Shown here in pieces: positions 3,377-54,358 of a stretch of DNA of 64,000 bases (positions are counted from its first letter, which is position 1; the number at the start of each line of letters is the position of its first letter). The stretch lies in NCBI GenBank assembly GCA_028718635.1, contig JAQULK010000001.1, positions 316,692 to 380,691 of the forward strand, written 5' to 3'. Made by a program: the position numbers and the translations under genes. The stretch is from Minisyncoccota bacterium (lineage in GTDB: Bacteria; Patescibacteriota; Minisyncoccia; Phycocordibacterales; UBA9973). The notes under the pieces are model-generated. The model was not told where the DNA came from. It did not search any database and saw only the letters and a list, made by a program, of their open reading frames with translations.

Positions 3377-3394
3377 TGTGCTATAATATCTTTA

Positions 3395-3505
3395 AATCGC
3401 GAAACATAAACTTTTCTTCGGTACGGAATTTTTGAAGCTTAAAAATTCCTGAAGTTCTCGGCTCGCCAGCCTCGAAACCCCTTCGAAAAGTTATGTTTCG
3501 CGATT
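3395..3505 (+). repeat. Family B inverted-repeat element, copy B1 (TIR aatcgcgaaacataaactttt / aaaagttatgtttcgcgatt; internal palindrome ggatttttt-gaagctt-aaaaaatcc)
   Basis: Near-identical core at 49356..49466 and 52798..52911. Confidence 0.8.
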
Positions 3506-3536
3506 CACAATATTATAAGTTTAATTTAATTTTTAT

Positions 3537-3776
3537 ATGTCAGACGAAAAAGGAGAAAATTTAGTACACGGTTTTGATATTCATGCAGGTGATCATCAGC
3601 ATGCATTAAGTTATATAGAAAGTCATATGAGTCCAGAACAATTAAAAGATATGGTTCACAGGGCAGAGAGCGGGCATAGCGCTCATTTTATGGTTACTCA
3701 CAATGGAGTACAGTCAAATTTCAAATTAATACATCAAGACGGAAAGTTAGTAATTCATCATGCGCATCACATTTAA
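3537..3776 (+). CDS. Small histidine-rich protein (13 His in 79 aa), hypothetical, possible metal-binding; stop overlaps pheS start (TAATG)
   Basis: ORF with translational coupling to pheS; composition only. Confidence 0.45.
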   Translation: MSDEKGENLVHGFDIHAGDHQHALSYIESHMSPEQLKDMVHRAESGHSAHFMVTHNGVQSNFKLIHQDGKLVIHHAHHI

Positions 3777-4498
3777 TGAACGAGGAAAATAAAAAAGGTA
3801 AAATACACCCGCTTTCAATGTTAGCTGAGGAGGCCTATCAGGCGTTTTCTGAGATGGGCTTTGAAATTGCAACTGGTCCAGAGCTTGAAAGTGATTGGTA
3901 TAATTTTTATGTTTTAAATTTCCCCAAAGATCATCCAGCGTTGGATATGCAAGATACTTTTTGGATTAAGGATCAAAAAGGAAAAGTTTTACGCACACAT
4001 ACGACGACTACCACAGCACGAGCCATAGAACAAGCAGGTAAAGATGGCAGAATGCCTTGCGCCTTTATTTCTGTTGGAAAAGTTTTTCGCAATGAAGCGA
4101 CTGATGCGACTCACGAAATGCAATTTTACCAGATAGATGGAATCATGGTGGGTAATATTGAAGATGGAATTTCTGTTGCGAATTTAAAAGGAGTACTCAC
4201 GAAATTTTATAAAAAGATGTTGGGCGAAAATACTGAGATAGAATTTCGTCCCAGTTTTTTCCCTTTTACTGAGCCTTCGCTTGAAGTTCACGCAAAGTTC
4301 AACGGGAAGTGGCTCGAAATGATGGGTGCTGGAATGGTTCATCCGAATGTGCTTCGTAACTGCGGACTTGACCCTGCAAAAGTGCAAGGATTCGCTTTTG
4401 GTGGAGGTCTCGATCGGATTGCGATGATTAAATGGAACATATCCGATATACGATTTTTTTATCAGGGAGATTTGCGTCTTAATCAATTTTCAAAATAA
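3776..4498 (+). CDS. pheS: Phenylalanyl-tRNA synthetase alpha subunit, minimal catalytic-core form
   Basis: FPFTEPS, GAGMVHPNVL, GFAFGGGLDRIAMI class II motifs. Confidence 0.92.
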   Translation: MNEENKKGKIHPLSMLAEEAYQAFSEMGFEIATGPELESDWYNFYVLNFPKDHPALDMQDTFWIKDQKGKVLRTHTTTTTARAIEQAGKDGRMPCAFISVGKVFRNEATDATHEMQFYQIDGIMVGNIEDGISVANLKGVLTKFYKKMLGENTEIEFRPSFFPFTEPSLEVHAKFNGKWLEMMGAGMVHPNVLRNCGLDPAKVQGFAFGGGLDRIAMIKWNISDIRFFYQGDLRLNQFSK

Positions 4499-4504
4499 AT
4501 TCAG

Positions 4505-6322
4505 ATGAAAATTTCTTATAATTGGCTAAAAAGTTATATTCCTGAAGTATCTAATACAGATAATCTTGTAGATATTTTTAACTATCATCTTTGCGAAGTT
4601 GAAGGCCTAGAGAAAAAAGGTAATGATACTGTTTTTGATATAAATATTTTACCAAATCGCGCGCATGATCTGCTTTCCCATCGGGGCGTTGCTCGCGAGC
4701 TTGCTTCACTTTTAGATATAAAATTTATTGATCCGATTTTAAAATATAAAATTCCCGAATCAAAACCAACTAAATTAATAAAAGAAATCAAAAGCGATAA
4801 ATGCCGCCGTTATATGGGGCGGGTTATTCGCAATGTGAAAGTGGCGCCTTCGTCAGAATGGGTCGTGAAGTATTTGGAATCGATGGGGCAGAGAAGTATA
4901 AATAATATTGTGGATGCCACAAATATTGTGATGTTTGACTGTGGACAGCCGGCGCACGTTTTTGATTTAGAAAAAGTAAAAGATTTGAGATTGCAGGTGC
5001 GATATGCTGAAAACGGAGAGAAAATTACTTTACTTGGCGGAGGAGAAAAAATCATGAATGATACTATGATGGTTATCTCTGATGATAAAGGTAATTCGCT
5101 TGATATTGCTGGTATAAAAGGCGGAACATATGCCGAACTAAATCAAAACACCACGGAGATAATTTTAGAATGTGCGAATTTTGACCCCACGAGTGTCCGC
5201 AAAACTGCTCAAGCATTGAATATTTTTACTGATGCGCGAAAACGTTTTGAAAATGATTTGTCGCCGGAGCTGGCAGAGTATGGAATAAAAGAATTGTCTG
5301 CGCTTATTTATGAAATGTGTCCAAACGCTATATTTGAGGATATCGTGGATATTTATCCGGAAAAACAAAAAGAAAGAAAGCTTTCTTTTTCCGCTGAAAA
5401 AATTTCAAAGATTTTAGGTTTAGATGTATCTATTGAGGAGATAGAGAATATATTAAAGAGATATAATTTTACATATGTAGAAGATGGTGGACGGTTTGAA
5501 ATCGTAGTGCCACCGATGCGTCTTGACCTAGTAATCGAGGAAGATATGGCTGAGGAGATCGGCAGAATTTTGGGTTACGACAAAGTCAAAGCGCAAATGC
5601 CTGAAATTGGTTTTCAACCAAAGCAAAATGAGACTTATTTCAAAATATCTTTTGCGAGAAATAAATTGCTAGAAGAAGGATATTCTGAAGTGATGACAAG
5701 CAGTTTCTGCGATGAGGGAGAGGTGGAGGTCTTGGCTTCTGCTTCTGATAAAAATTTCTTAAGAACGAATCTGACAGATGGATTGAAAGAGAGCTTAAAA
5801 TTAGATCAAGTGAATGCCCCATTGCTTGGAATAGAAAAAGTTAAAATTTTTGAGATTGGAACAATTTTCAAGAAAAGCGGAGAAGAGATGCACGTTGCTT
5901 ACGGAGATAAAAAAAGAATAAAAGAAATGAAATTGAAAGATTTTCTACCACCTCGCCCTTCGGGCACTCCTCTTCAGAAAGGAGGAGAAGAATTTCCTCC
6001 CCGCCTTGATAAGGAGGGGGCAGGGGGTGGTAAATTTAAAATGTGGTCACTGTTTCCTTTTATTGCGCGTGATATCGCTGTCTGGGTGCCGGAAAATGTC
6101 CAGAACCAGGAAGTAGCAAAAATTATAAAAGAAAACGCGGGGGGAATGGTGGTTCGCGGACCGGAACTTTTTGATGAATTTAAAAAGGGAGATAAAATAT
6201 CTTATGCTTTTAGATTAGTTTTTCAATCTTATGAAAGAACTTTGAATGACCAGGAAGTAAACGATATTATGACCAAAATAACTGATAAAATAAAGGAAAA
6301 TGTTGATTGGCAAGTGAGGTAA
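4505..6322 (+). CDS. pheT: Phenylalanyl-tRNA synthetase beta subunit (short form) carrying an in-frame palindromic element insertion
   Basis: MKISYNWLKSYIPE N-terminus typical of PheT; B3/4 and B5 regions; adjacent to pheS. Confidence 0.88.
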   Translation: MKISYNWLKSYIPEVSNTDNLVDIFNYHLCEVEGLEKKGNDTVFDINILPNRAHDLLSHRGVARELASLLDIKFIDPILKYKIPESKPTKLIKEIKSDKCRRYMGRVIRNVKVAPSSEWVVKYLESMGQRSINNIVDATNIVMFDCGQPAHVFDLEKVKDLRLQVRYAENGEKITLLGGGEKIMNDTMMVISDDKGNSLDIAGIKGGTYAELNQNTTEIILECANFDPTSVRKTAQALNIFTDARKRFENDLSPELAEYGIKELSALIYEMCPNAIFEDIVDIYPEKQKERKLSFSAEKISKILGLDVSIEEIENILKRYNFTYVEDGGRFEIVVPPMRLDLVIEEDMAEEIGRILGYDKVKAQMPEIGFQPKQNETYFKISFARNKLLEEGYSEVMTSSFCDEGEVEVLASASDKNFLRTNLTDGLKESLKLDQVNAPLLGIEKVKIFEIGTIFKKSGEEMHVAYGDKKRIKEMKLKDFLPPRPSGTPLQKGGEEFPPRLDKEGAGGGKFKMWSLFPFIARDIAVWVPENVQNQEVAKIIKENAGGMVVRGPELFDEFKKGDKISYAFRLVFQSYERTLNDQEVNDIMTKITDKIKENVDWQVR

Positions 6323-6327
6323 AATTT

Positions 6328-6460
6328 CCCCCCACACCTATTTTGTTATTGCTTTTTGTTCTGATTTTATTTTATTTCGTATTGTAAATATAAAAGAGAA
6401 TATTAAAATAATAAAAGTATTGTTTTGAAAAGCAGAACGATAACAAAATAGGTGTGGGGG
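6328..6460 (+). repeat. Family C element, copy C1: perfect 21-bp TIR cccccacacctattttgttat / ataacaaaataggtgtggggg around a 90-bp AT-rich interior
   Basis: Direct reading; related copy at 13973..14051. Confidence 0.85.
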
Positions 6461-6698
6461 TTTCTCCACAACTTACCCTTGCTTTTTAAAATAATAATGC
6501 TATAGTCTGATTATGAAACGAGGAATGCGTCCAAGTAAATATTCTTCAACAAGCACGCTGTTGCTCAGCCTTAAATTTAGAAGGCTGATGTTTGTGCTGT
6601 AAAAATCTCCAAAAAATTACAACCCAAAAATGAGCCTTCTAACCAAAGGCATTTTTTTGTTTTTCGAAAACAGAAGAGAAGAAAGGGGGTAGTAAAAG

Positions 6699-6857
6699 AT
6701 GCCAAGCGATGAACGTCATTTTCAAGAATCAAATTCTTATGTGGGGGAAATTTTTCAGGAAACAGCTCCACAAGGAGAGACTACAGTAGAGTGTCCAGTC
6801 GCCACAGCGTGTATTGACTGCGAACACTACAAAAAAGACTGCAAAGCCTGGAAGTAA
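6699..6857 (+). CDS. Candidate small cysteine-rich peptide (52 aa, MPSDERHFQESNSYVGEIFQETAPQGETTVECPVATACIDCEHYKKDCKAWK) with a strong SD (aaggggg) 8 nt upstream and a hairpin terminator downstream
   Basis: ORF below the 60-aa cutoff of the supplied track; GGGGG SD; followed by the hairpin at 6878..6919. Confidence 0.35.
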   Translation: MPSDERHFQESNSYVGEIFQETAPQGETTVECPVATACIDCEHYKKDCKAWK

Positions 6858-6877
6858 AAGTGAAGTAATCCATCATC

Positions 6878-6930
6878 AAAAGCCACAACGTCCGAAAGGA
6901 GGAAAAACGTTGTGGCTTTCGTACTTTTAC
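6878..6930 (+). terminator. Hairpin aaagccacaacg-N17-cgttgtggcttt followed by a T-containing tract; probable terminator of the small peptide gene
   Basis: 12-bp perfect stem; weak U-tract. Confidence 0.5.
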
Positions 6931-6942
6931 CCAAAAAATCAC

Positions 6943-6971
6943 TAGCAAAACTAATAATATTTTGCTATAAT
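6943..6971 (+). promoter_or_regulatory. Putative sigma70-type promoter (-35 TAGCAA, 17-nt spacer, -10 TATAAT at 6966..6971) only 8 nt upstream of the gyrB ATG, implying a leaderless or near-leaderless mRNA
   Basis: Consensus -10; no Shine-Dalgarno sequence before the ATG at 6980. Confidence 0.45.
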
Positions 6972-6979
6972 ACATATGT

Positions 6980-9900
6980 ATGGCGAAAGAAAAAGAAGAC
7001 AAAAAAGGTGCCGAAAAAGGGCACCGTTATGATGCCTCTGACATTTCCGTTTTAGAGGGGCTAGAACCCGTCAGGCGCCGTCCTGGCATGTATATCGGCA
7101 CCACGGGGCCCGAAGGATTACACCACTTAATATGGGAGATTTTTGATAATTCACGCGACGAAGCGATGGGTGGTTTTTGTAATGATATTGAAATTGTCCT
7201 TCTTCCCGGCAATCGCATTCGCGTGGCAGACAATGGCCGAGGCATACCGATCGATATTCATAAAAAAACAAAAGTTTCTGCTTTGGAAACTGTGATGACG
7301 ACGCTTCACGCTGGAGGAAAATTCGGAGGGGAAGGATACAAAGTTTCCGGAGGTCTTCATGGAGTCGGCGCTTCTGTCGTAAATGCTCTTTCTATTTATT
7401 GCAAAGCGGAAGTTTATAGGGATGGCGGAAAGTATTACCAAGAATATTCTCAAGGCAAGAAAAAATCTGCAGTTAAGAAGAGCGGTGCTTCGAAACTTCA
7501 TGGTACCATCATTACCTTTGAACCCGATGAAGAAATTTTTGGCAAAATTGTGTTTGATTGGAATACGGTAATGAGCCACATCCGCCAGCAAGCTTATTTG
7601 GTAAAAGGATTAAAAATTTTAATAATTGATGCAAGAGGGTGGGATAATCAGAAGGGCTTAAACGAAGAAGACGTTTTTTATTTTAGAGAATTAGGACTAG
7701 AGTTACCCTCAGTGACTTTTTATTTCGAAGGCGGATTGGTTTCTCTCGTAAAATATTACAATAAACTTCATAAGCCGATTCAAAACCACATTTTTTATGT
7801 TGAAAAAGAATTAGATAAAGTTGGGGTAGAAATAGCTTTACAATATGTAGATGATATTTCAGATAGAATTTTTCCTTTCGCCAATAATATTTACACCGGA
7901 GAAGGCGGAACCCACGTGACTGGTTTTAAAACAGCTCTCACTAGGACACTCAATACTTACTGCAAGAAAAATGAAATGATGAAAGAATCCGAAGGCGGAT
8001 TTACCGGCGATGATGTCCTGGAAGGATTGACGGTGGTTATTTCTGTAAAGCTTCGAGAGATACAATTTGAAGGGCAGACTAAAGGGAAATTGGGCAGTAT
8101 GGAGGCTCAGGGTGCGGTGGCGACAGTTTTCGGCGAAGCTTTTGCAAGCTTCCTAGAAGAAAATCCAGATGATGCCAAAGCAATAATCAACAAGTCAATT
8201 CTAGCTCTAAAAGCGCGTAAGGCAGCAAAGGCAGCCAAGGACTCAATCCTTCGCAAAGGCGCATTGGAGGGGATGACTTTGCCGGGGAAGTTGGCAGACT
8301 GTCAAAGTAAAAATGCCTCTGAATCGGAATTGTTTTTGGTAGAGGGGGATTCGGCAGGAGGATGTTTTTCAGCAGATACTAAGGTCGCTTTAGTTGACGG
8401 CAGAGATATTTCTTTTAAAGAATTAATTTTAGAACACAATCTAGGTAAAACAAATTATTGTTATACGATTCTGGATGATGGAAGTATCGGTATTCAAAAA
8501 ATTCTTAATCCAAGAAGAACAAAAATAAATACTGAGGTTATAAAAGTCATGCTAGACAATGAAGAAGAAATTGTTTGCACTCCAGACCACCTTTTTATGC
8601 TTCGTGATGGTAATTATAAAGCAGCTCAAGATCTCGAATCAAATGATTCATTAATGCCGTTGCGAAAGCAATTTTCTAAAATAGGCAAAAGAATTACAAT
8701 TGAAGACTATGAAATGGTTTATGACGGGAAAGATCATAGGTGGATATTTACTCATTTGCTTTCTGATAATTATAATTTAGAGCAAGGCGTTTATCCAATT
8801 ACTGAAGGTTCACATAGGCATCATAAGGATTTTAATAAAAGAAACAACAATCCTGAGAACATTATTCGTTTAACTAAGGAAGAACACATGGCATTGCATG
8901 CTCTCCTTTATGAAAAAAATTTAAAGAGGCCGGATGTTTTGGAAAAATTAAAGAACATAAGAAACACTCCTTCATATCGGGGAAAGATACGCCAGAAAAT
9001 GCTCTTAATGAGAGATGAGCTTAGCGCTCGCGCTAAAGCCCAATGGGAAAACGAAGAATATAAAAAATACATGGTTCAGAAATTTTTAGATTTTTATGCT
9101 TCCAACGAAGAATATAGAAAAAAAAGCCAAGAAATTTTAAAGATTGCTCAGAAAAAATATTGGTCAAATGAGGCAAATGTAGAAAAACAATCCCAAAAAG
9201 TAAAGAATTTTTTTAAAGCGCACCCTGAATTAAAAAAAGGACTTTCTGTAATAGCTAAAGAACAATGGGCAAACTTTGATTTATTGAAATGGCGAAGCGA
9301 TAAGACTAAAGGGCAATGGACCGAAGAATTCAGAGAAAAAAGAAAAGTTGCTTATGATAAAACCTATTATGAAAATACCATCAAGGTGTTGAGAAGAGTT
9401 TATGATAACAATAAAGAAATTGACGTAAATCTTTTTGAAGAAATAAGAAAGAGAGAAAATAATAAAAATGTTCTTTCTTTTAAAACCTTTGTAAGCAGGT
9501 TTTTTGACGGAAACGAGACTGAATTATCTGAGGCAGTGGAAAATTATAACCATAAAATAAAAAAAATTATCCAGCTTTCAGAAAAAATAGATGTTTATGA
9601 CTTAGAAGTTCCGGGAACTCATAATTTTGCTCTTGCTTCTGGAGTTTTTGTTCATAATAGCGCTAAACAGGGTAGGGATCGCCGTATCCAAGCGATATTG
9701 CCACTCCGAGGTAAAATTTTAAATGTTGAGCGCGCGCGAATAGACAAGATGCTCGCTTCCAAAGAAGTGAAATCTCTCGTTATCGCTATGGGTACTTCTA
9801 TCGGAGATACTTTTGATTTAGAAAAAATGCGTTATCATAAAATAATTATTGCTACCGATGCCGACGTGGACGGTTCGCACATTCGTACTTTATTGCTTAC

Positions 9901-18916: not shown

Positions 18917-20829
18917 TTTGTTTTTGCCATTTGGAATTTAATATTTTCTTCTTTGCCTTCTGTTATATTGCTTATTTGAAAAACAGAATTTTGTTGGGTA
19001 ATGTTTTTTACTGCTGTCATCGAGCCGTCTTTAAATAATTTTAATTCTAAAAGCATGCCTTTCATTGTCGGCTTGCTCCAAGATTGGTCAAAAATAAAAT
19101 TGCCAAGTGAATAGGCAATATAACCATTTTTGTAAATTTCGGTATCTTCTACGATATGCGGGTGTGAACCAATAATAATTTTTGCACCATCATCAATCGC
19201 TCTATGGGCTAATTCCTCTTGTCTTGCGTTATGTTTTGTCTGATACTCTACGCCGAAGTGAAAAGCGACGACTAAATAATCCACTTGTTTAGCTGCATTT
19301 TTAATTATTTGATCAAAATTGGGATTGTTTGCGAGGAGAATGCCTGCTTTGCCAGCGTCGGCAGGCAAATTGTTCGGACCAACGTCAGAAAATCCCAGGT
19401 AGCCGATCTTCATTCCATATTTTTCAATAATGGCTGGAGTTTCAGCTTCTGTTGCATTGTTTCCTCCGCCAGTATAAAGGATTTCATTTTCTTTTAGACG
19501 CGCGAGCGTATCAATAAAGGCGTTATGTCCCCAATCATTAATATGATTGTTTGCCAAAGACAAAACGCTTAAACCTGCACCTTTAAGAGTCGGGATGACG
19601 ACGGGATCCATTCTAAAGGAATATAAATTTTTCTGATCTGCCCCTTTGTCCGAAACTGGACCTTCCAAGTTAGCAAAGAAGATGTCCGTGTTTTTTGATA
19701 ATTCAAGCAAGGTGTCTGATTTTTCAAAAAGCTGAGAATAGTCATTGTTGAAATTTTTTATGACTGAATTTTTTACGCCGCGATCGAGCATTATGTCGCC
19801 GGCAAAAGACAAGGTAATAAAATTCTGATCTCTGATGTCCGGCATTCCGATTTTTTCCTGCACCCAATTCGTATTTATATCAGCAGCTCCGCCGTAGTAA
19901 ACATTTTTCCTTAAATATTTTAAAAGAGTTTCTACGTCATTATGACGGTCAGAACTTTGAAGTAAGGTAATGGCAATGGGTTGAGAACCAGTTTTTCCAA
20001 GAGGCAGATCAAAGAGAGAAACGACGGTTTCCTTTGCAGGGTCTGTATAACCGCTTTTTCCTCCCATGTATCCTTCATTCTTCAGGAACTGGCTAATGTT
20101 TGACCAACTGTGAGTTTTGGTGGAATAACTGTTTTTGGTAGTGATTTTAAATAAATCCGATTTTTGCTGAGCTATATAACCGGCCAATTTAAACATATCG
20201 GACACGGTTGATTGATTGTGGGAAGTGAGTCCGCTAGGGTCTTCATAAGAAGTAGAATTCATTTGCAGAGCTCTCGCTTCCTGATTCATTTTCGCGATGA
20301 AACTGCTTCTGCCGAAATATAAAGCAAGCGCTTCCGCTGCGTCGTTGCTTGATTCCAAAAGGAGCGGGTATATTAGATCAGAGATTTTTATTTTTTCTCC
20401 CAATCTCAATTCTCCGTTTTGGCCGGAAGTTGAGAGGGCGGTCTTGGTTATTTTGGTCGTCTCGTTTGGGTTTGCTAATTTACTGGCAACGAGCGCGGTC
20501 ATTAATTTGGAGGTAGAGGCAATCGGAAATTTTTGATCTTGATTTTTTGCAAGAATTACTTCTCCGGTATTCAAGTCGCCGACTAGATAAGCTTTAGCAG
20601 AAACTTTTGGTCCACCTTTTGTATCATTGTTTATATAATAATATTGGAGTTTTGTTGATTCTGGGGCGACAAGTTGGACTACTGAGGCCTCGTTATTTTT
20701 TGTTTGGAATATTTTTATAGAATTAATATTGTTAAAAATAAAGGATACAAAAAAAATACCAAGTATTATTGGAGGCATTGTCCAAAATATTAATTTTGTT
20801 TTATTTTTTATTTCTTTAATAAATTTCAT
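18913..20829 (-). CDS. Membrane-anchored fusion: D-alanyl-D-alanine carboxypeptidase (PBP5-like, SxxK = ASTSKLMT) and a C-terminal CapA/PGA-type metallophosphoesterase domain
   Basis: STSK motif; ANNHINDWG and GGGNNATEAE motifs of the CapA family. Confidence 0.7.
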   Translation of the reverse strand: MKFIKEIKNKTKLIFWTMPPIILGIFFVSFIFNNINSIKIFQTKNNEASVVQLVAPESTKLQYYYINNDTKGGPKVSAKAYLVGDLNTGEVILAKNQDQKFPIASTSKLMTALVASKLANPNETTKITKTALSTSGQNGELRLGEKIKISDLIYPLLLESSNDAAEALALYFGRSSFIAKMNQEARALQMNSTSYEDPSGLTSHNQSTVSDMFKLAGYIAQQKSDLFKITTKNSYSTKTHSWSNISQFLKNEGYMGGKSGYTDPAKETVVSLFDLPLGKTGSQPIAITLLQSSDRHNDVETLLKYLRKNVYYGGAADINTNWVQEKIGMPDIRDQNFITLSFAGDIMLDRGVKNSVIKNFNNDYSQLFEKSDTLLELSKNTDIFFANLEGPVSDKGADQKNLYSFRMDPVVIPTLKGAGLSVLSLANNHINDWGHNAFIDTLARLKENEILYTGGGNNATEAETPAIIEKYGMKIGYLGFSDVGPNNLPADAGKAGILLANNPNFDQIIKNAAKQVDYLVVAFHFGVEYQTKHNARQEELAHRAIDDGAKIIIGSHPHIVEDTEIYKNGYIAYSLGNFIFDQSWSKPTMKGMLLELKLFKDGSMTAVKNITQQNSVFQISNITEGKEENIKFQMAKTN

Positions 20830-22817
20830 TATATTAAAACATAGTCTATAGTTTTTTTCTCCAAATCAACTGCTTTTACTTTTATTTTAACATGATCGCC
20901 AAGACGATATCTTTTTCCTTGCCTACCGGCAGGCGGGTTCTTTTTTTGCCCGACCAATTCTAGTTTTTTTTCATTAAAAATATAAAAGTCGTCTTTCATA
21001 TCTCGTACTCGTACGAGGCCTTCGCATTTTGTACCTATCTCTTCAACATACATACCCCACTCAGTTATGCCACTTATCACTCCATCAAAACTTTCCCCTT
21101 TGCGTTTAGACATATATTCCACTTGTTTGTATTTTATGGATGCTCGTTCGGCTTCCGTTGCCCGTTTTTCTTGTTCAGAAGCGATTATGACAATTCTTTC
21201 ATATTCTAATAATTTTTCTTTTAATTTATTATTTGTCACTTTTTTCTTTGCAAGATAATCACTCAATAATCTATGGATCATAATGTCTGGATATCTTCTG
21301 ATTGGGGAAGTGAAATGCGTGTAATATTCAAAAGCTAAGCCATAATGGCCGATATTTTTTGTAGAATAAGTTGCTTTGGCCATAGACCTGATCACGGCGC
21401 GATGTACCGTATCACTCATTATTTTGTTTGGGTTTTTGCTTTTTAAATCTTCAAGTAATTTATTTATTTCATGAGTTGGAATTATCCCGTCTTGTAATGA
21501 TACTTTGTGTCCCAAGCTTCGTAAGAAAAATGCGAGATCAGCCATTTTCTCTTTTGATGGTTCATCATGGATGCGATAAATGGAAATATCTTTTGAGAGA
21601 ACTTTTGCCACTTTTTTATTTGCCAGCAACATAAACTCTTCAACTAGTCTATTGGAATCACCTCGTTCTTTTTTTATTACTTTTATCGGGGTACCCTTAT
21701 CATCTAAAATAAATTTAACTTCTTCTTGGTCAAGTGATATAGCGCCTTTAGCAAATCTTTCTTTGGTTAATTTTTTTGCTAAATTATTCAAAATGGAAAG
21801 CTCTTTATGTAGGGGAGCATTTTCATTTTTTATTGCCTCGCCCGTAGGGCTATGGCCGAGGGCTTTTTCTGCTTCTTCATATGTAAATCTTTTTTTAGAA
21901 TGTATTACAGTGCGACCAAACCATTCATCTTTTATTTCTGCGTTTTTATTAATAATAAATACTGCGCTCATGGTGAGTCGATCTTTGTGGGGGACTAAAC
22001 TGCACAAATCATTCGAAAGAGTTTCCGGGAGCATCGGTATTGTTCTGTCTACTAGATAAACCGAGGTTCCTCTTGTGCGGGCTTCTTCATCTAAAGCGCT
22101 GCCAGGTCTCACATAGTGAGACACGTCTGCTATATGGATGCCGACTTCATACACCTCACCCCCTAGCCCCCTCTCCTTATTAAGGAGAGGGGGGAGAATA
22201 CGAAAAGAAATTGCGTCATCAAAATCTTTTGCATCCTCTGGATCAATCGTAAAAGTTAGTGTTTTTGTGAAATCCCGACGTCCTTCATAATCACTTTTTC
22301 TTATTCCTTCGCGCTTTATTTTTTTTGCTTCTTCTTCTACTTTATTTGGAAGTTCTGAATCAAAACCTTTTTCTATCGCAATTGCATTCATCTCGGTAGT
22401 GTTGTCACCAGGTTTTCCCAAGATTTTTATTACTTTTCCAATGGGAGCTTTTTGCGCGTCTTTCCATGAAACTATTTCCACAAAAACTTTTTGCCCGATT
22501 TTTGCGTTATTCAAATTTTCTTTTGGAATCAAAATATCCGTGTACATTTTCGTGTCATCTGTTTTCAAAAAAACTACATTTTTTTCTTGTTCCAAAACTC
22601 CGGTAAAACGCATTTTTGCGCGAGAAATTATTTTTACTACTTCGGCAGTCTGGCGTTTCTGGCTTTTTGGGTGGAGAAGTATCTCCACCATATCTCCGTG
22701 AAGCGCAGTATTCAAATGCTTAAAATCAATTTCCGGATCTTGTTCTTTATTTTTTCCTATTCCTACGGCTACATATCCCGTGCCTTTTGAGGAGATAGAA
22801 ATAATGCCCTCGGCCAT
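20829..22817 (-). CDS. rnr: Ribonuclease R / RNB-family 3'-5' exoribonuclease with a C-terminal S1 domain; contains an in-frame palindromic insertion
   Basis: RNB domain motifs, S1 at the C-terminus; start chosen at MAEGIISI to avoid overlap with the divergent promoter. Confidence 0.85.
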   Translation of the reverse strand: MAEGIISISSKGTGYVAVGIGKNKEQDPEIDFKHLNTALHGDMVEILLHPKSQKRQTAEVVKIISRAKMRFTGVLEQEKNVVFLKTDDTKMYTDILIPKENLNNAKIGQKVFVEIVSWKDAQKAPIGKVIKILGKPGDNTTEMNAIAIEKGFDSELPNKVEEEAKKIKREGIRKSDYEGRRDFTKTLTFTIDPEDAKDFDDAISFRILPPLLNKERGLGGEVYEVGIHIADVSHYVRPGSALDEEARTRGTSVYLVDRTIPMLPETLSNDLCSLVPHKDRLTMSAVFIINKNAEIKDEWFGRTVIHSKKRFTYEEAEKALGHSPTGEAIKNENAPLHKELSILNNLAKKLTKERFAKGAISLDQEEVKFILDDKGTPIKVIKKERGDSNRLVEEFMLLANKKVAKVLSKDISIYRIHDEPSKEKMADLAFFLRSLGHKVSLQDGIIPTHEINKLLEDLKSKNPNKIMSDTVHRAVIRSMAKATYSTKNIGHYGLAFEYYTHFTSPIRRYPDIMIHRLLSDYLAKKKVTNNKLKEKLLEYERIVIIASEQEKRATEAERASIKYKQVEYMSKRKGESFDGVISGITEWGMYVEEIGTKCEGLVRVRDMKDDFYIFNEKKLELVGQKKNPPAGRQGKRYRLGDHVKIKVKAVDLEKKTIDYVLI

Positions 22818-22909
22818 AGACCTACGGGCGAGGTCTTGCCGTATGTGTTGTTTATTTAAATTATTTTTCACCTTATAAATATAGCATAATTTAAACAACC
22901 ATAGAGTGA

Positions 22910-22937
22910 TTGACAATCATTTAAAATATGGTAGAAT
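22910..22937 (+). promoter_or_regulatory. Strong promoter: -35 TTGACA (22910..22915), 16-nt spacer, extended -10 TGgTAGAAT (to 22937); the ATG at 22945 is 7 nt downstream, so the transcript is leaderless
   Basis: Direct consensus match. Confidence 0.55.
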
Positions 22938-23917: not shown

Positions 23918-23968
23918 TCACCTCACCCGGCCTTTGGCCACCCTCTCCTTAATAAGGAGAGGGGCTGG
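23918..23968 (+). repeat. Family D nested palindromic element, copy D1 (outer cacctcaccc...gggggtgaggt, inner ccctctccttaataaggagagg)
   Basis: Inverted copy at 45137..45198; related in-frame copies inside pheT, smc-like, rnr and dnaG. Confidence 0.85.
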
Positions 23969-24077
23969 GGGTGAGGTCTTATTGCTACAAAATTTTAATT
24001 AGTTATAATTACAGGTATAGCAGTATGTCAGGTCGTAACACTGCAAGTTTAGTAAAAGATTAAATTAAAAAAACATT

Positions 24078-32199: not shown

Positions 32200-34053
32200 A
32201 TGAACTCTCCTGTCCAACAAATTAAGGAGAGGCTATCAATTGAAGAAGTAGTCTCTTCTTATATAAAGCTAGAAAAGGCAGGCGCAAACCTAAAAGCAAA
32301 ATGCCCGTTTCATAACGAAAAAACTCCTTCCTTTTTTATTTCCCCTGATCGAGGCACTTACTATTGTTTTGGATGCGGGGTAAAGGGCGATATTTTTACT
32401 TTCGTAGAAGAATTTGAAGGTCTTGATTTTAGAGGAGCTCTTAAATTGCTTGCCAGCAGAGCGGGAATTGTTTTGGAATCTTACAATCCGAAAGATCAAA
32501 GAAATCAGAGCGAAAAAGAAAGATTATATGAAGTCATGGAAGAAGCGACTGTTTTTTTTGAGAAGAATTTAAAAGAAAATCCGGAAGTTTCATCTTATCT
32601 AAAAAATAGGGGGCTGAATGATGAAAGTATAAAAAATTTCCGTATTGGTTTTGCCTTATTGGAGTGGCGTAAACTTTATGATTATTTAAAATCTAAAAAT
32701 TTTTCTGACAGTGAAATAGAAAAAGCAGGACTTGCAAAGACCCCCTCCGCCGTTGGCACCTCCCCCTTGATAAGGGGGAGGCTGGGTGGGGGTCTGTATG
32801 ACAGATTTCGTGGACGAATAATGTTTCCTATCTCGGATTCTAGCGGACGGGTTATTGCTTTTTCCGGAAGAATCTTTGTTGATGACGGAAAGTCTGCGAA
32901 ATACCTAAATAGCCCTGAAACTTCTATCTTTAATAAATCCGCTGTTCTTTTCGGCATAGATAAAGCTAAAGACCCCATTCGGAAAAATGACTTTTCTATC
33001 TTAGTTGAAGGTCAAATGGATTTGATTTTATCTCACCAAGCAGGATTTAAAAATACCGTAGCTTCCTCGGGGACAGCCATGACTGATTCAGTATTGTCAA
33101 AAGAAAATATTATAAATAACCTAGGACTTATCACCAGATTGTCAAAGAACATGGTCCTTGCTTATGATGCTGATAGAGCGGGGGTGAGTGCGACTAACCG
33201 TTTTGCTAAGATTGCATTATCTTTGGGTATGGATGTAAAGGTGGCAGATATACCCGAGGGAATGGATCCGGCTGATTTGATTTCCCGTGGCTATAGCCAA
33301 ATGGGCGAGGCAAAAGTTGGAGTGGATGCCTGGCGGGAAGCGATAAGGAATTCGAAACATTTTATCGAATTTATGCTGCTGAGGATCTTAAAAGATACTA
33401 ATTCTGACAATAGAAAGGCTGGCAGGGAAATAAAGGAACGCTTGCTTCCTTTTGTGAATGAGATAGAAAGCTCCATAGAAAAATCACATTTCATTACATT
33501 AATCAGTAATAAATCAGGGATTCCTGAAAATGCCCTGATGGAAGATTTGAAAAAAGTAGAAACTGAATTTAAGAATGAAAAAGAAGATATCAAAATCGCC
33601 AAAGAAAATATAGAGAAAAAATTAAGAAAAGACCCGATCGAGCGAAGGCTTTTAGGTATAGCTTTTTGGCAAGAGAGTCTGTCGGACGTTGGACGTCCGA
33701 AATTCGGACGTCCAACGTCCGACAAAACGTCCGACAAACCTAGAATTGATCCAGAATTGATTTTTAAAAAATTAGAAAAAGCAAAAGAAAATGTTAAAGA
33801 AAAATATAAAGACAGGAGAGAGGATTTGATTTATGAGGTAGAAGAATTTTACTCAAATAATGAAAATCTGGAAAAAGACGTAGAGGAAATGCTGCTCAAT
33901 ATAGAGGAAGAATATTTAAATGAAGAATTTAGCATTAAGATGATAGAATACCAGAATTGCAAAGATAAAATAGAAAAGGAAGAAATTTTTAAAAAAATAA
34001 GTGAAATAACAAAAAGAAAAGAAGATATTAAAAATAGTCGTATAAGAAAATAA
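32200..34053 (+). CDS. dnaG: DNA primase carrying two in-frame palindromic insertions
   Basis: Zn-ribbon CPFHNEKTPSFFISPDRGTYYCFGCG; TOPRIM EGQMDLI. Confidence 0.9.
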   Translation: MNSPVQQIKERLSIEEVVSSYIKLEKAGANLKAKCPFHNEKTPSFFISPDRGTYYCFGCGVKGDIFTFVEEFEGLDFRGALKLLASRAGIVLESYNPKDQRNQSEKERLYEVMEEATVFFEKNLKENPEVSSYLKNRGLNDESIKNFRIGFALLEWRKLYDYLKSKNFSDSEIEKAGLAKTPSAVGTSPLIRGRLGGGLYDRFRGRIMFPISDSSGRVIAFSGRIFVDDGKSAKYLNSPETSIFNKSAVLFGIDKAKDPIRKNDFSILVEGQMDLILSHQAGFKNTVASSGTAMTDSVLSKENIINNLGLITRLSKNMVLAYDADRAGVSATNRFAKIALSLGMDVKVADIPEGMDPADLISRGYSQMGEAKVGVDAWREAIRNSKHFIEFMLLRILKDTNSDNRKAGREIKERLLPFVNEIESSIEKSHFITLISNKSGIPENALMEDLKKVETEFKNEKEDIKIAKENIEKKLRKDPIERRLLGIAFWQESLSDVGRPKFGRPTSDKTSDKPRIDPELIFKKLEKAKENVKEKYKDRREDLIYEVEEFYSNNENLEKDVEEMLLNIEEEYLNEEFSIKMIEYQNCKDKIEKEEIFKKISEITKRKEDIKNSRIRK

Positions 34054-52790: not shown

Positions 52791-52797
52791 TTAACTT

Positions 52798-52911
52798 TGA
52801 ATTACAAAACATAAACTTTTCTTCGGTACGGATTTTTTGAAGCTTAAAAAATCCTGAAGTTCTCGGCTCGTCAGCCTCGAAACCCCTTCGAAAAGTTATG
52901 TTTCATAATTC
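52798..52911 (+). repeat. Family B element, copy B3; ends immediately before the ATG of the decarboxylase gene at 52912
   Basis: Core shared with B1 and B2. Confidence 0.8.
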
Positions 52912-54165
52912 ATGATAAATATCATGTCACATTGCAATCCGGAAGAAAGACAAGTTGAGCCTTGGGTTAACGAAGAAGGTTTTCAAAAATTGAATTTAAA
53001 AAATGTTGAAACTCCTTGCTATATTGTAAGCGAGGGGAATCTTGAGCGTAATTTAAAAATTCTCGAAAAAATACAGAAAGATTTAGGAGTAAAAATTTTA
53101 ATTGCCCTTAAATGCTTTTCGATGTATTCTGTCTTTCCGCTCATAAGAAAATATTTAGCGGGGACAGAAGTGAGTTCAGTAAATGAAGCGCGTCTAGGAT
53201 ATGAAGAATTCGGCAAGGAAAATCATATTTTTTCTCCATCCTACACCGATAAAAATATCAAAGAATATATAAAATACGGCAACCATATATCTTTCAACTC
53301 TTTTTCTCAATGGAACAAGTTCAAAAAAACCATCAAAAATTCCCTCGGTCGTAGCCCTACGGGTGAGACCAAGAAAAAAGTGTCTTGCGGTATCCGAGTA
53401 AATCCAGAACACAGCGAAGGAACCATGCCTATGTATGACCCTTGTGTGCCCCGTTCGCATCTAGGCGTGACTTTAGCGAATTTTGAAACAAATAACATGG
53501 AAGGGATAGAAGGATTGCATTTTCACACTCTTTGTGAAAATGGCGCCGATAAGTTTGCGCGCACTCTGAAAGCTTTTGAAGAAAAGTTTGGAAAATTTTT
53601 AGGAAAGATGAAATGGGTAAATTTCGGAGGCGGGCATCTTCTTACCAATTCCGATTATGACCTTGATTTGCTTTATAAGGTCGTTTCTGATTTTAAAAAA
53701 AGATACCCGCACTTGACGGTCTATTTCGAGCCGGGAGAAGCAGTAGTGATGAATACCGGAGGTCTAGTGGCTTCTGTGATAGACATTTTTAATAACGGAG
53801 TAGATATTGCCGTTCTTGATGTGTCAGCGGCGTGTCATATGCCGGATGTTTTAGAAGTGCCGTATTTGCCGAAAATTGTGGGTGCGAAACCTATAACTGG
53901 TAATTGTAAAATTGAGGGAGAAAAAAATGTTTATAAGCTAGTGGCGCCGACGTGTTTGACTGGAGACGTTATCGGTTTTTATTCTTTTCCTAATAAATTA
54001 AAAATCGGAGACAAGATAATTTTTCTCAATATGGCGATTTATACGATGGTAAAGAATAATACCTTTAATGGAGTCAATTTGCCGAATATCACCAAGATGG
54101 ACAAGAAGGGGAAAATAAAGGTCTTGAAAAGATTTGGGTATGAGGATTTTAAAAGAAGGCTATAG
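52912..54165 (+). CDS. nspC: Carboxy(nor)spermidine decarboxylase (NspC family)
   Basis: TPCYIVSEGNLERNLKIL ... ILIALKCFS ... GGGHLLT pattern of NspC. Confidence 0.78.
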   Translation: MINIMSHCNPEERQVEPWVNEEGFQKLNLKNVETPCYIVSEGNLERNLKILEKIQKDLGVKILIALKCFSMYSVFPLIRKYLAGTEVSSVNEARLGYEEFGKENHIFSPSYTDKNIKEYIKYGNHISFNSFSQWNKFKKTIKNSLGRSPTGETKKKVSCGIRVNPEHSEGTMPMYDPCVPRSHLGVTLANFETNNMEGIEGLHFHTLCENGADKFARTLKAFEEKFGKFLGKMKWVNFGGGHLLTNSDYDLDLLYKVVSDFKKRYPHLTVYFEPGEAVVMNTGGLVASVIDIFNNGVDIAVLDVSAACHMPDVLEVPYLPKIVGAKPITGNCKIEGEKNVYKLVAPTCLTGDVIGFYSFPNKLKIGDKIIFLNMAIYTMVKNNTFNGVNLPNITKMDKKGKIKVLKRFGYEDFKRRL

Positions 54166-54170
54166 AATTT

Positions 54171-54260
54171 TGAATTACGAAACTTGTCGCAGGCGCAGTT
54201 TTATAGAAGCATTGCGCAGGCTGACGAGCCGAGCATAGCAAAAAATCAGCAGATTTTTAT
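54171..54260 (+). repeat. Degenerate/rearranged family B fragment (gaattacgaaac ... ggctgacgagccgag)
   Basis: Shares the left TIR and inverted core with B3. Confidence 0.5.
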
Positions 54261-54358
54261 GTGTGCTGATATAAAACTTGTGCCAAGAAAGAGTTTCGTA
54301 ATTCAAAAGAACTTCTTATTTACTTTTTTGTATTTTGTACTACAATTAGAGTTGGTCC

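Follow-up and report, generated by a model that had tools for sequence, protein, structure and literature searches.

A widespread family of small inverted-repeat elements, probably MITE-like, in Patescibacteria and Planctomycetota

Two inverted-repeat elements and their surroundings

The window, i.e., the whole 64-kb stretch of Minisyncoccota DNA analysed here, contains two small elements, C1 and C2, which both start with CCCCCACACCTA and end with TAGGTGTGGGGG (Table 1). C1 is located in the spacer between pheT and gyrB, and C2 occupies the region from which thrS and rpmF diverge; rpmF starts with an ATG at 14095. The arms of C1 are 21 nt long, 100% complementary and separated by 90 nt, just as the first-pass annotation had described its terminal inverted repeats (TIRs). 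From the span of 6328-6460 given there, the end can be kept, but the element starts at 6329, since base 6328 closes a flanking TTTC. Also, C1 had been placed directly after the pheT stop; it is indeed found downstream of pheT, but 6 nt separate it from the TAA codon (6320-6322). The position of C2 and its perfect 15-bp TIRs proved correct as annotated. Its arms extend to 29 nt with 79% complementarity because of a 5-nt indel in one of them. A search of the window for CCCCCACACCTA with at most one mismatch returned four matches, which are all element ends, against 0.02 expected from shuffled sequences (0 of 100 shuffles reached four), and a chance origin of these matches was thus rejected. No additional degenerate copies of the C family were found in the 64-kb window. 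Positions 3471-7056 of the window are also found, without any difference, on a Logan contig from SRR22315506.

Table 1. Positions of the C elements, their parts and other repeats in the window
Feature	Position	Strand	Remark
C1	6329..6460	.	132-bp non-autonomous element (probable); member of the ~133-bp Patescibacteria subfamily
C1 left TIR	6329..6349	+	conserved 12-bp tip CCCCCACACCTA, variable 7-bp spacer TTTTGTT, AT
C1 right TIR	6440..6460	-	partner of 6329..6349
C1 8-nt segment TGCTTTTT	6350-6357		precedes GTTCTG; mostly missing from the other arm
C1 subterminal box GTTCTG	6358..6363	+	long arm
C1 subterminal box CAGAAC	6433..6438	+	short arm; complement of GTTCTG
C1 target-site duplication TTTC, left copy	6325..6328	.	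removal of C1 and one TTTC gives colinearity with L228
C1 target-site duplication TTTC, right copy	6461..6464	.	
C2	13973..14051	.	79-bp element between divergent thrS and rpmF
C2 left TIR	13973..13987	+	15 bp, perfect
C2 right TIR	14037..14051	-	15 bp, perfect
C2 target-site duplication TTTA, left copy	13969..13972	.	compared with uninterrupted L123
C2 target-site duplication TTTA, right copy	14052..14055	.	
D family, GC-rich palindromes ACCTCACCC..CCCTCTCCTTAATAAGGAGAGGG..GGGGGTGAGGT	16980-17019, 22153-22195, 23936-23977, 32754-32793, 45137-45177		
Second inverted-repeat family, CCCGTTAGARG...CYTCTAACGGG	245-364, 14333-14451, 47949-48070, 49214-49333		
126-nt repeat, 20-nt inverted arms (AATCGCGAAACATAAACTTT...)	3387-3512, 49348-49473, 52792-52917		

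Several other repeats are present in the window. The palindromes of the D family had been proposed to share their termini, and hence a mobilisation mechanism, with the C family. However, their outer ends are ACCTCACCCCC...GGGGGTGAGGT, and the C5/G5 run is located on the inner side. The D termini are thus the mirror image of the C polarity and provide no evidence for a common mechanism. Three of the D copies (16980-17019, 22153-22195 and 32754-32793) are embedded in long mechanical ORFs (16129-18327, 20829-22916 and 32200-34053, respectively), which is reminiscent of in-frame palindromic insertions. The last of these ORFs also contains a perfect palindrome, TGTCGGACGTTGGACGTCCGAA/TTCGGACGTCCAACGTCCGACA, at 33680-33724, with arms of 22 nt and 1 nt between them. 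All four copies of the CCCGTTAGARG family directly abut a start codon, with TCTAACGGG immediately followed by ATG on either strand, and no duplication is visible in the flanks of these four window copies. A related element in another genome (L014), CCCCGTTAGAGAA...TTCTCTAACGGGG, has TCAA on both flanks. The 126-nt repeat has a conserved interior with the motif ctcggctcgYcagcctcg. This motif is also found in inverted-repeat elements at 45849-45964 and 54168-54308, one of which is located just upstream of the RNase P RNA gene.

The spacer between C1 and gyrB contains a hairpin with 26-nt arms as well as a 52-aa Cys-rich ORF with a terminator-like hairpin behind it (6565-6650 and 6699-6857). The hairpin region and its promoter-like sequence are kept in a relative (L228, see below), there with a different small Cys-rich ORF; none of these features is present in the pheT-gyrB spacer of L122-L124. 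The gyrB gene itself (6980-10357, plus strand) encodes a protein of 1125 aa, vs. ~700 aa in relatives. The surplus corresponds to an intein (Intein_splicing, residues 498-893) with a weak match to an HNH endonuclease.

Insertion sites and target duplications

Both window copies are insertions relative to orthologous sites in related Paceibacterota contigs, and each has duplicated 4 bp of its target. For C2, the empty site was found in L123, a relative from a JGI metagenome, the PheT protein of which is 74% identical and the gene order of which is the same as in the window. L123 reads cacaTTTTAttttgc, uninterrupted and with a single TTTA (longer context, tcacaTTTTAttttgcttttcatctataat), whereas the filled site in the window reads cacatTTTA, then C2, then TTTAttttgc (right flank context, TTTAttttgcttttcatctataat). 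For C1, the empty site was found in L228, a relative from Logan SRR22387874 with 77% identity in PheT. In L228, the sequence passes from the pheT stop directly into ggttttccacaac...cttgctttttaaaat, and the window without C1 and one TTTC is colinear with it. The entire pheT-gyrB spacer measures 657 nt in the window vs. 22-76 nt in three more distant relatives. A further empty site was sought in the syntenic pair L005/L068, where the intergenic DNA was not alignable. Thus, the view that the C elements are mobile, TIR-bounded repeats was borne out, and the 4-bp direct repeats beside C1 and C2, of which the first-pass annotation made no mention, are target-site duplications. The empty site in L123 also bears on the start of thrS. 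C2 had been thought to overlap the 5' end of this gene and to supply a possible GTG-initiated extension. However, the conserved ATG (13949-13947) lies 23 nt off the element, and the GTG extension is unsupported since this codon is situated within C2, which is absent in L123, while the context of the ATG is conserved.

The duplication is a general property of the family. An exact 4-bp flanking repeat was found in 70 of the 126 paired elements, whereas permutations gave 8.0 on average and never more than 17. Flanking repeats of 2, 3, 6 and 7 bp occurred at chance level, and five elements showed a 5-bp repeat. Many of the other 56 copies are only one base off an exact duplication. Among the 21 different duplication sequences, TAAA/TTTA, TTGA/TCAA and TATA predominate, while TTAA occurs in 1 of 70. 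The rebuilt empty target is a palindrome, G/TWWA/C (the slashes mark the limits of the duplicated bases), with frequencies of 79% for T, 87% for each W and 79% for A, and with G preceding and C following in 49% each. The commonest outward flanks are TAAAAT, TTGACA, TTTATT, TATACT and TAAAAA. Many insertions thereby appear to sit in hexamers that resemble -35 or -10 boxes, of which the duplication presumably keeps one copy intact.

Distribution and anatomy of the family

The first-pass annotation had expected further copies beyond this window. In a scan for the two 12-mers at a distance of 51-111 nt, with one genome per species, paired ends were indeed found in at least 120 stretches from the genomes of other species. 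Approximately 94 loci among the matches listed are labelled as Patescibacteria lineages or plain 'bacterium'. The Patescibacteria among the matches listed include Paceibacterota, Saccharibacteria, Nomura-, Yonath-, Wolfe-, Moran-, Kaiser- and Buchananbacteria, and others, and a coherent group outside the Patescibacteria is formed by the Planctomycetota (Phycisphaerae, Sedimentisphaerales and Planctomycetaceae). A few loci carry the database labels Gammaproteobacteria, Nitrospinota, Stahlbacteria or Actinomyces, which are given here as deposited; several copies under these labels have no duplication, and one contig labelled gammaproteobacterial has a flank in common with a Portnoybacteria contig. 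Up to seven copies were sampled per metagenome-assembled genome (MAG), and the 64-kb window holds two. The copies are mostly intergenic, as 96 of 125 do not overlap any ORF of at least 150 aa.

Copies with one or two mismatches in the tips, retrieved by a search for pairs with relaxed ends at 30-420 bp, likewise have duplications. In the Phycisphaerae class, orthologous copies with identical flanks were found in different MAGs, i.e., at 528-629 of L012 and 170-271 of L044, which differ by eye at ~5 of 102 bases, and at 556-660 of L009 and 1088-1192 of L112; hence, the elements persist across species-level divergence in that lineage. Tandem arrays of elements or ends are present in L093 (3706-3953), L078 (1964-2063) and L120 (3134-3407), in each case separated by one common 4-bp duplication (CTTG four times, CAAG three times and TTTG, respectively), which hints at either recurrent insertion into one site or unequal recombination. 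At three loci, a complete tRNA gene lies exactly between both 12-mers (L046, 377-489; L103, 2987-3090; L118, 5040-5141). The enclosed tRNAs, Thr-CGT once and Arg-GCG twice, are set off by spacers of 1-9 nt, and no duplication is found there. Truncated 5' fragments of tRNA genes abut solitary left ends in L046 and L097 (7216-7314).

The length of the elements ranges from 44 to 144 bp among 127 copies, with modes at ~105 and 131-135; the latter sits at the limit of the search pattern, and longer members therefore probably exist. Elements of such a length are too short to encode a transposase. The perfect TIRs measure 12-22 bp (median 17) in these copies and read H-T-T at positions 13-15. The interiors are highly diverse: for 86 of 127, no match was found among the other sampled copies. 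Two subfamilies can be discerned, one of ~105 bp with 13 copies in Planctomycetota, the other of ~133 bp with 11 copies in Patescibacteria, including C1, the interior of which is 83% identical to that of a copy in L004. For the C2 interior, the best identity to any sampled copy was 0.58, which is inside the range of the shuffled controls. In the 133-bp subfamily, the tip is followed by a 7-bp variable spacer, AT and the GTTCTG box, a layout kept in 17-18 members, and the ends are asymmetric because one arm has an extra 6-8 nt before the box.

The spacer adjacent to the tip varies from copy to copy, and yet it matches between both arms of each copy. Of the cells in the arms, evaluated over 21 pairs, 97.5% are Watson-Crick, and G-U pairs are nearly absent. 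Among the variable pairs, eight of nine change on both sides, with double changes in 44 cells vs. 14 in shuffles. Since the arms covary with hardly any G-U, their identity appears to be maintained at the DNA level and not as an RNA structure. Within a genome, the copies have a subterminal motif in common that is specific to the lineage (GAGGAA-like, CTTTT-like or TTTGCA-like) and differ in the bases adjacent to the tip. Predicted folds are very stable, with z-scores from -5.3 to -10.6 overall. For C1, the values are -33 kcal/mol as DNA (z = -10.4) and -51 kcal/mol as RNA, and for C2, -17.7 kcal/mol as DNA (z = -5.3).

Relationship to known elements and proposed mechanism

An autonomous partner was sought in various ways. 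Among 121 fetched loci, no pairs of ends 0.4-4 kb apart with a duplication were found when up to three mismatches were allowed, nor was any gene flanked by C ends in the correct orientation, and ORFs of 750-2400 bp between inverted repeats were only genes between two separate small elements. In total, the searches covered ~0.9 Mb of flanks, with ~8 kb per copy, and yielded no autonomous copy. In viral contigs, the pattern of paired ends gave 0 matches, and a single-end 16-mer gave 22, all without a partner end, an extended repeat or a duplication. Annotated plasmid and phage records contained no C element. An all-against-all BLAST of 612 neighbouring ORFs revealed no enriched protein family; the largest clusters were housekeeping proteins, i.e., PilB-like ATPase, EF-Tu, RuvB, MurE, PBP2 and others. 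Six-frame translations of the 121 loci and of the window, probed with phmmer and hmmsearch, gave no match to an IS1380-type transposase (NF033539). One locus, L113, contains an IS66/Mutator-like fragment that is unrelated to the C elements.

In many respects, the C elements resemble known bacterial miniature inverted-repeat transposable elements (MITEs), such as Correia in Neisseria, RUP in Streptococcus pneumoniae and ERIC in enterobacteria. All of these are non-coding elements of ~70-160 bp with TIRs and a short duplication, which are located in intergenic regions, often beside promoters or gene ends, form hairpins upon transcription and vary in presence among related genomes. However, Correia elements duplicate TA, whereas the C family duplicates 4 bp at G/TWWA/C. 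Furthermore, the part common to all C elements is the 12-bp tip alone, with most interiors being unrelated, and the family is spread over many classes of Patescibacteria and the Planctomycetota, in contrast to the one genus of the other families. The features of MITEs in general are found in the C family, i.e., small size, absence of coding capacity, TIRs that reach the tips, a duplication of fixed length, dispersed copies and empty orthologous sites. A further one, an autonomous partner with the same ends, was not found in the 121 loci or the viral contigs, and we know of no parent insertion sequence for the family.

The IS1380 family has ends that begin with CC and repeats of 4-5 bp. Starting from the sequence of the ISEcp1 transposase, which was confirmed as NF033539, and with an alignment of 12 sequences as the query, 80 metagenome loci with 43 complete copies were sampled. 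The ends of these elements begin with CC and their duplications are short and AT-rich, as in the C family; exact flanking repeats of 4 bp were found in five of the complete copies (TTAA in four) and of 5 bp in seven. However, the tips read CCTRAA (CCTAAA or CCTGAA) in 35 of 43, while those of the C elements read CCCCCA (CCCCCACACCTA). Eight nt inwards, the C tip has CCTA and a T-rich stretch, a weak resemblance to IS1380. The C 12-mer was not present at the element ends among the 80 IS1380-family loci, and no IS1380-like ORF was found near C elements. The possibility that the C elements are derivatives of IS1380 was, therefore, rejected. One subgroup of the sample (within L148-L227) has CCTGAATCCGGCGTGA ends and TTAA flanks and is, in this respect, piggyBac-like. 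IS1380 transposases serve as the prokaryotic outgroup of piggyBac (PMC10813416).

The piggyBac elements of eukaryotes and their MITEs share with the C family the 4-bp duplication of a palindrome with T and A at its ends, tips that consist of a C run and an asymmetric subterminal spacing, comparable with the extra 6-8 nt on one arm in the 133-bp subfamily. However, piggyBac inserts strictly at TTAA, which accounts for one of the 70 C duplications, the C elements reside in bacteria, and the likeness in sequence is limited to the C run, so that the comparison is one of mechanism and not of membership. Thus, the C elements resemble IS1380 and piggyBac in the manner of insertion but do not have their ends. 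Another family, IS701, is like the C family in that its target duplications are exactly 4 bp and its phylogenetic spread is wide (PMC2266710). Its end signature, ---YACT-Y--YR, is a published consensus that is not family-wide (PMC2266710). The C tip fits this signature weakly, with agreement at 2 of 7 positions when aligned in register and at 5 of 7 after a shift of 1 nt. A tblastn search of plasmids, performed with respect to IS701, returned IS1380 elements only.

C1 and C2 are, in our view, probably copies of a family of MITE-like, non-autonomous transposons that is defined by the 12-bp tips CCCCCACACCTA/TAGGTGTGGGGG. The duplications of fixed length but variable sequence, the symmetric target, the TIRs that reach the tips, the lack of coding capacity, the dispersed copies and the empty sites together point to a non-autonomous cut-and-paste element. 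The transposase would be supplied in trans and most probably be a DDE-type, cut-and-paste enzyme that acts as a symmetric multimer; as no autonomous element was found, this class is deduced only from the duplication and the symmetry of the target. It may recognise the tips and, in subfamilies, a subterminal box, e.g., GTTCTG. The target would be cut with a 4-bp stagger and the element ends joined, after which gap repair would create the duplication. When transcribed, an element would form a long hairpin, which for C1 would be located at the 3' end of pheT, while C2 may affect the host by its position within the shared promoter region of thrS and rpmF. Insertions may be tolerable in the very short intergenic regions of these genomes, because on one side the first bases of a TTGACA- or TAWAAT-like hexamer would be restored by the duplicated 4 bp. 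Several observations stand against the MITE reading: with 86 of 127 interiors unmatched, the family is more heterogeneous than most bacterial MITE families, 56 of 126 copies have no exact duplication, although many of them are one base off, and three end pairs enclose a whole tRNA gene without a duplication. In addition, simple protein recognition of each end would not account for a spacer that varies between copies, even those of one genome, and yet agrees between both arms. Possibly, the arms are homogenised neutrally in extruded hairpins; alternatively, a folded substrate may be required.

The latter option leads to a different view of the family, in which the folded strand, consisting of the tip and the arm-matched stem, is the substrate of an unrecognised enzyme that integrates it with a 4-bp stagger. 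The enzyme need not be an IS transposase; its gene could be a chromosomal one, present as a single copy in Patescibacteria or Planctomycetota. In favor of this view are the covariation of the spacer between the arms in every copy, the different arms among copies of one genome, the mostly unrelated interiors, the very stable folding and the lack of an autonomous partner in the flanks, the viral contigs and the IS1380 loci. However, the identity of the arms may be neutral, e.g., by mismatch correction in extruded hairpins or by derivation from masters with identical arms, and, with searches that spanned ~8 kb per copy, an autonomous element may be located elsewhere in the genomes. Moreover, the hairpin-recognising transposases known to us make no target duplications. 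Such a substrate is, therefore, considered improbable. In a broader form, the C elements would constitute a new class of hairpin mini-elements of Patescibacteria and Planctomycetota that need only the 12-bp tip and an arbitrary self-complementary stem and are not deletion derivatives of insertion sequences, with either an unrecognised transposase family or a chromosomal, non-IS enzyme as the mover. This would account for the copy-by-copy covariation of the arms, the unrelated interiors and the missing partner, but it is still considered rather unlikely. The mobiliser that the first-pass annotation had brought up, a Y1 HUH transposase (TnpA) of the IS200/IS605 type that recognises hairpin ends and moves single-stranded DNA, can be dismissed almost entirely. 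The C elements can fold as long hairpins, and IS200/IS605 elements yield small non-autonomous palindromic derivatives known as PATEs, but elements of this family lack TIRs, do not duplicate their target and insert 3' of a single fixed tetra- or pentanucleotide. In the C family, in contrast, the repeats extend to the tips, 4-bp duplications that vary in sequence flank 70 of 126 copies, the duplication is genuine at both empty sites (L123 and L228), and no neighbouring gene recurs.

Equally doubtful in the extreme is a REPIN, i.e., two REP sequences that are dispersed as a doublet by a single-copy RAYT transposase. The size of ~100 bp, the inverted, hairpin-forming arrangement, the intergenic location and the many dispersed copies would all fit. 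However, REPINs lack a target duplication and begin, on the outer 5' side, with a conserved GTAG head, whereas the C elements have a 4-bp duplication, their outer ends are CCCCC/GGGGG, the nearest TAG/GTAG-like motif faces inwards, and no recurring gene flanks them. As a non-mobile alternative, a conserved structured RNA or regulatory hairpin (terminator, stem processed by RNase III or small RNA gene) would explain the strong predicted folds, the position of C1 just 3' of pheT, the conservation of the tips across phyla and the three loci where the 12-mers bracket a tRNA gene in the fashion of a processing stem. It is, nevertheless, very improbable, given that orthologous sites are filled in one genome and empty in another, with the target duplicated upon insertion, that the interiors are not conserved, that the covariation is strictly Watson-Crick with hardly any G-U and that C2 is located upstream of both divergent promoters. 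Also, no Rfam family matched C at the gathering threshold, where RNase P and two tRNAs were the only matches in the window. At a permissive threshold, C1 matched plant miRNA precursor families with 11-38 bits vs. thresholds of 80-171, which is generic hairpin similarity, and two very weak matches to bacterial sRNAs were obtained (9.5 and 11.9 bits), one of which lies outside C1. A simple terminator scan flagged neither element as a whole; its sole match near C1 was a stem of five pairs on the minus strand over the right boundary (6470-6453). Secondary use of some copies by the host is possible.

The C family is real and widespread. A description of it was not found in the full-text literature searched, in Rfam or in annotated plasmid and phage records, and literature matches to the 12-mer or to MITEs in these phyla were unrelated primers and oligonucleotides only. 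The Patescibacteria, or candidate phyla radiation, have tiny, gene-dense genomes that are usually thought to be poor in mobile elements. Here, one family of mini-transposons with identical 12-bp tips is distributed across many of their classes and the Phycisphaerae, with precise insertions in the promoter or terminator regions of essential genes (pheT, thrS and rpmF). The elements can serve as markers of strain-level variation and are likely to cause contig breaks in genome assemblies. Their tips also provide a means to track down the transposase that moves them; such an enzyme could be developed into a genetic tool for organisms for which hardly any exist at present.
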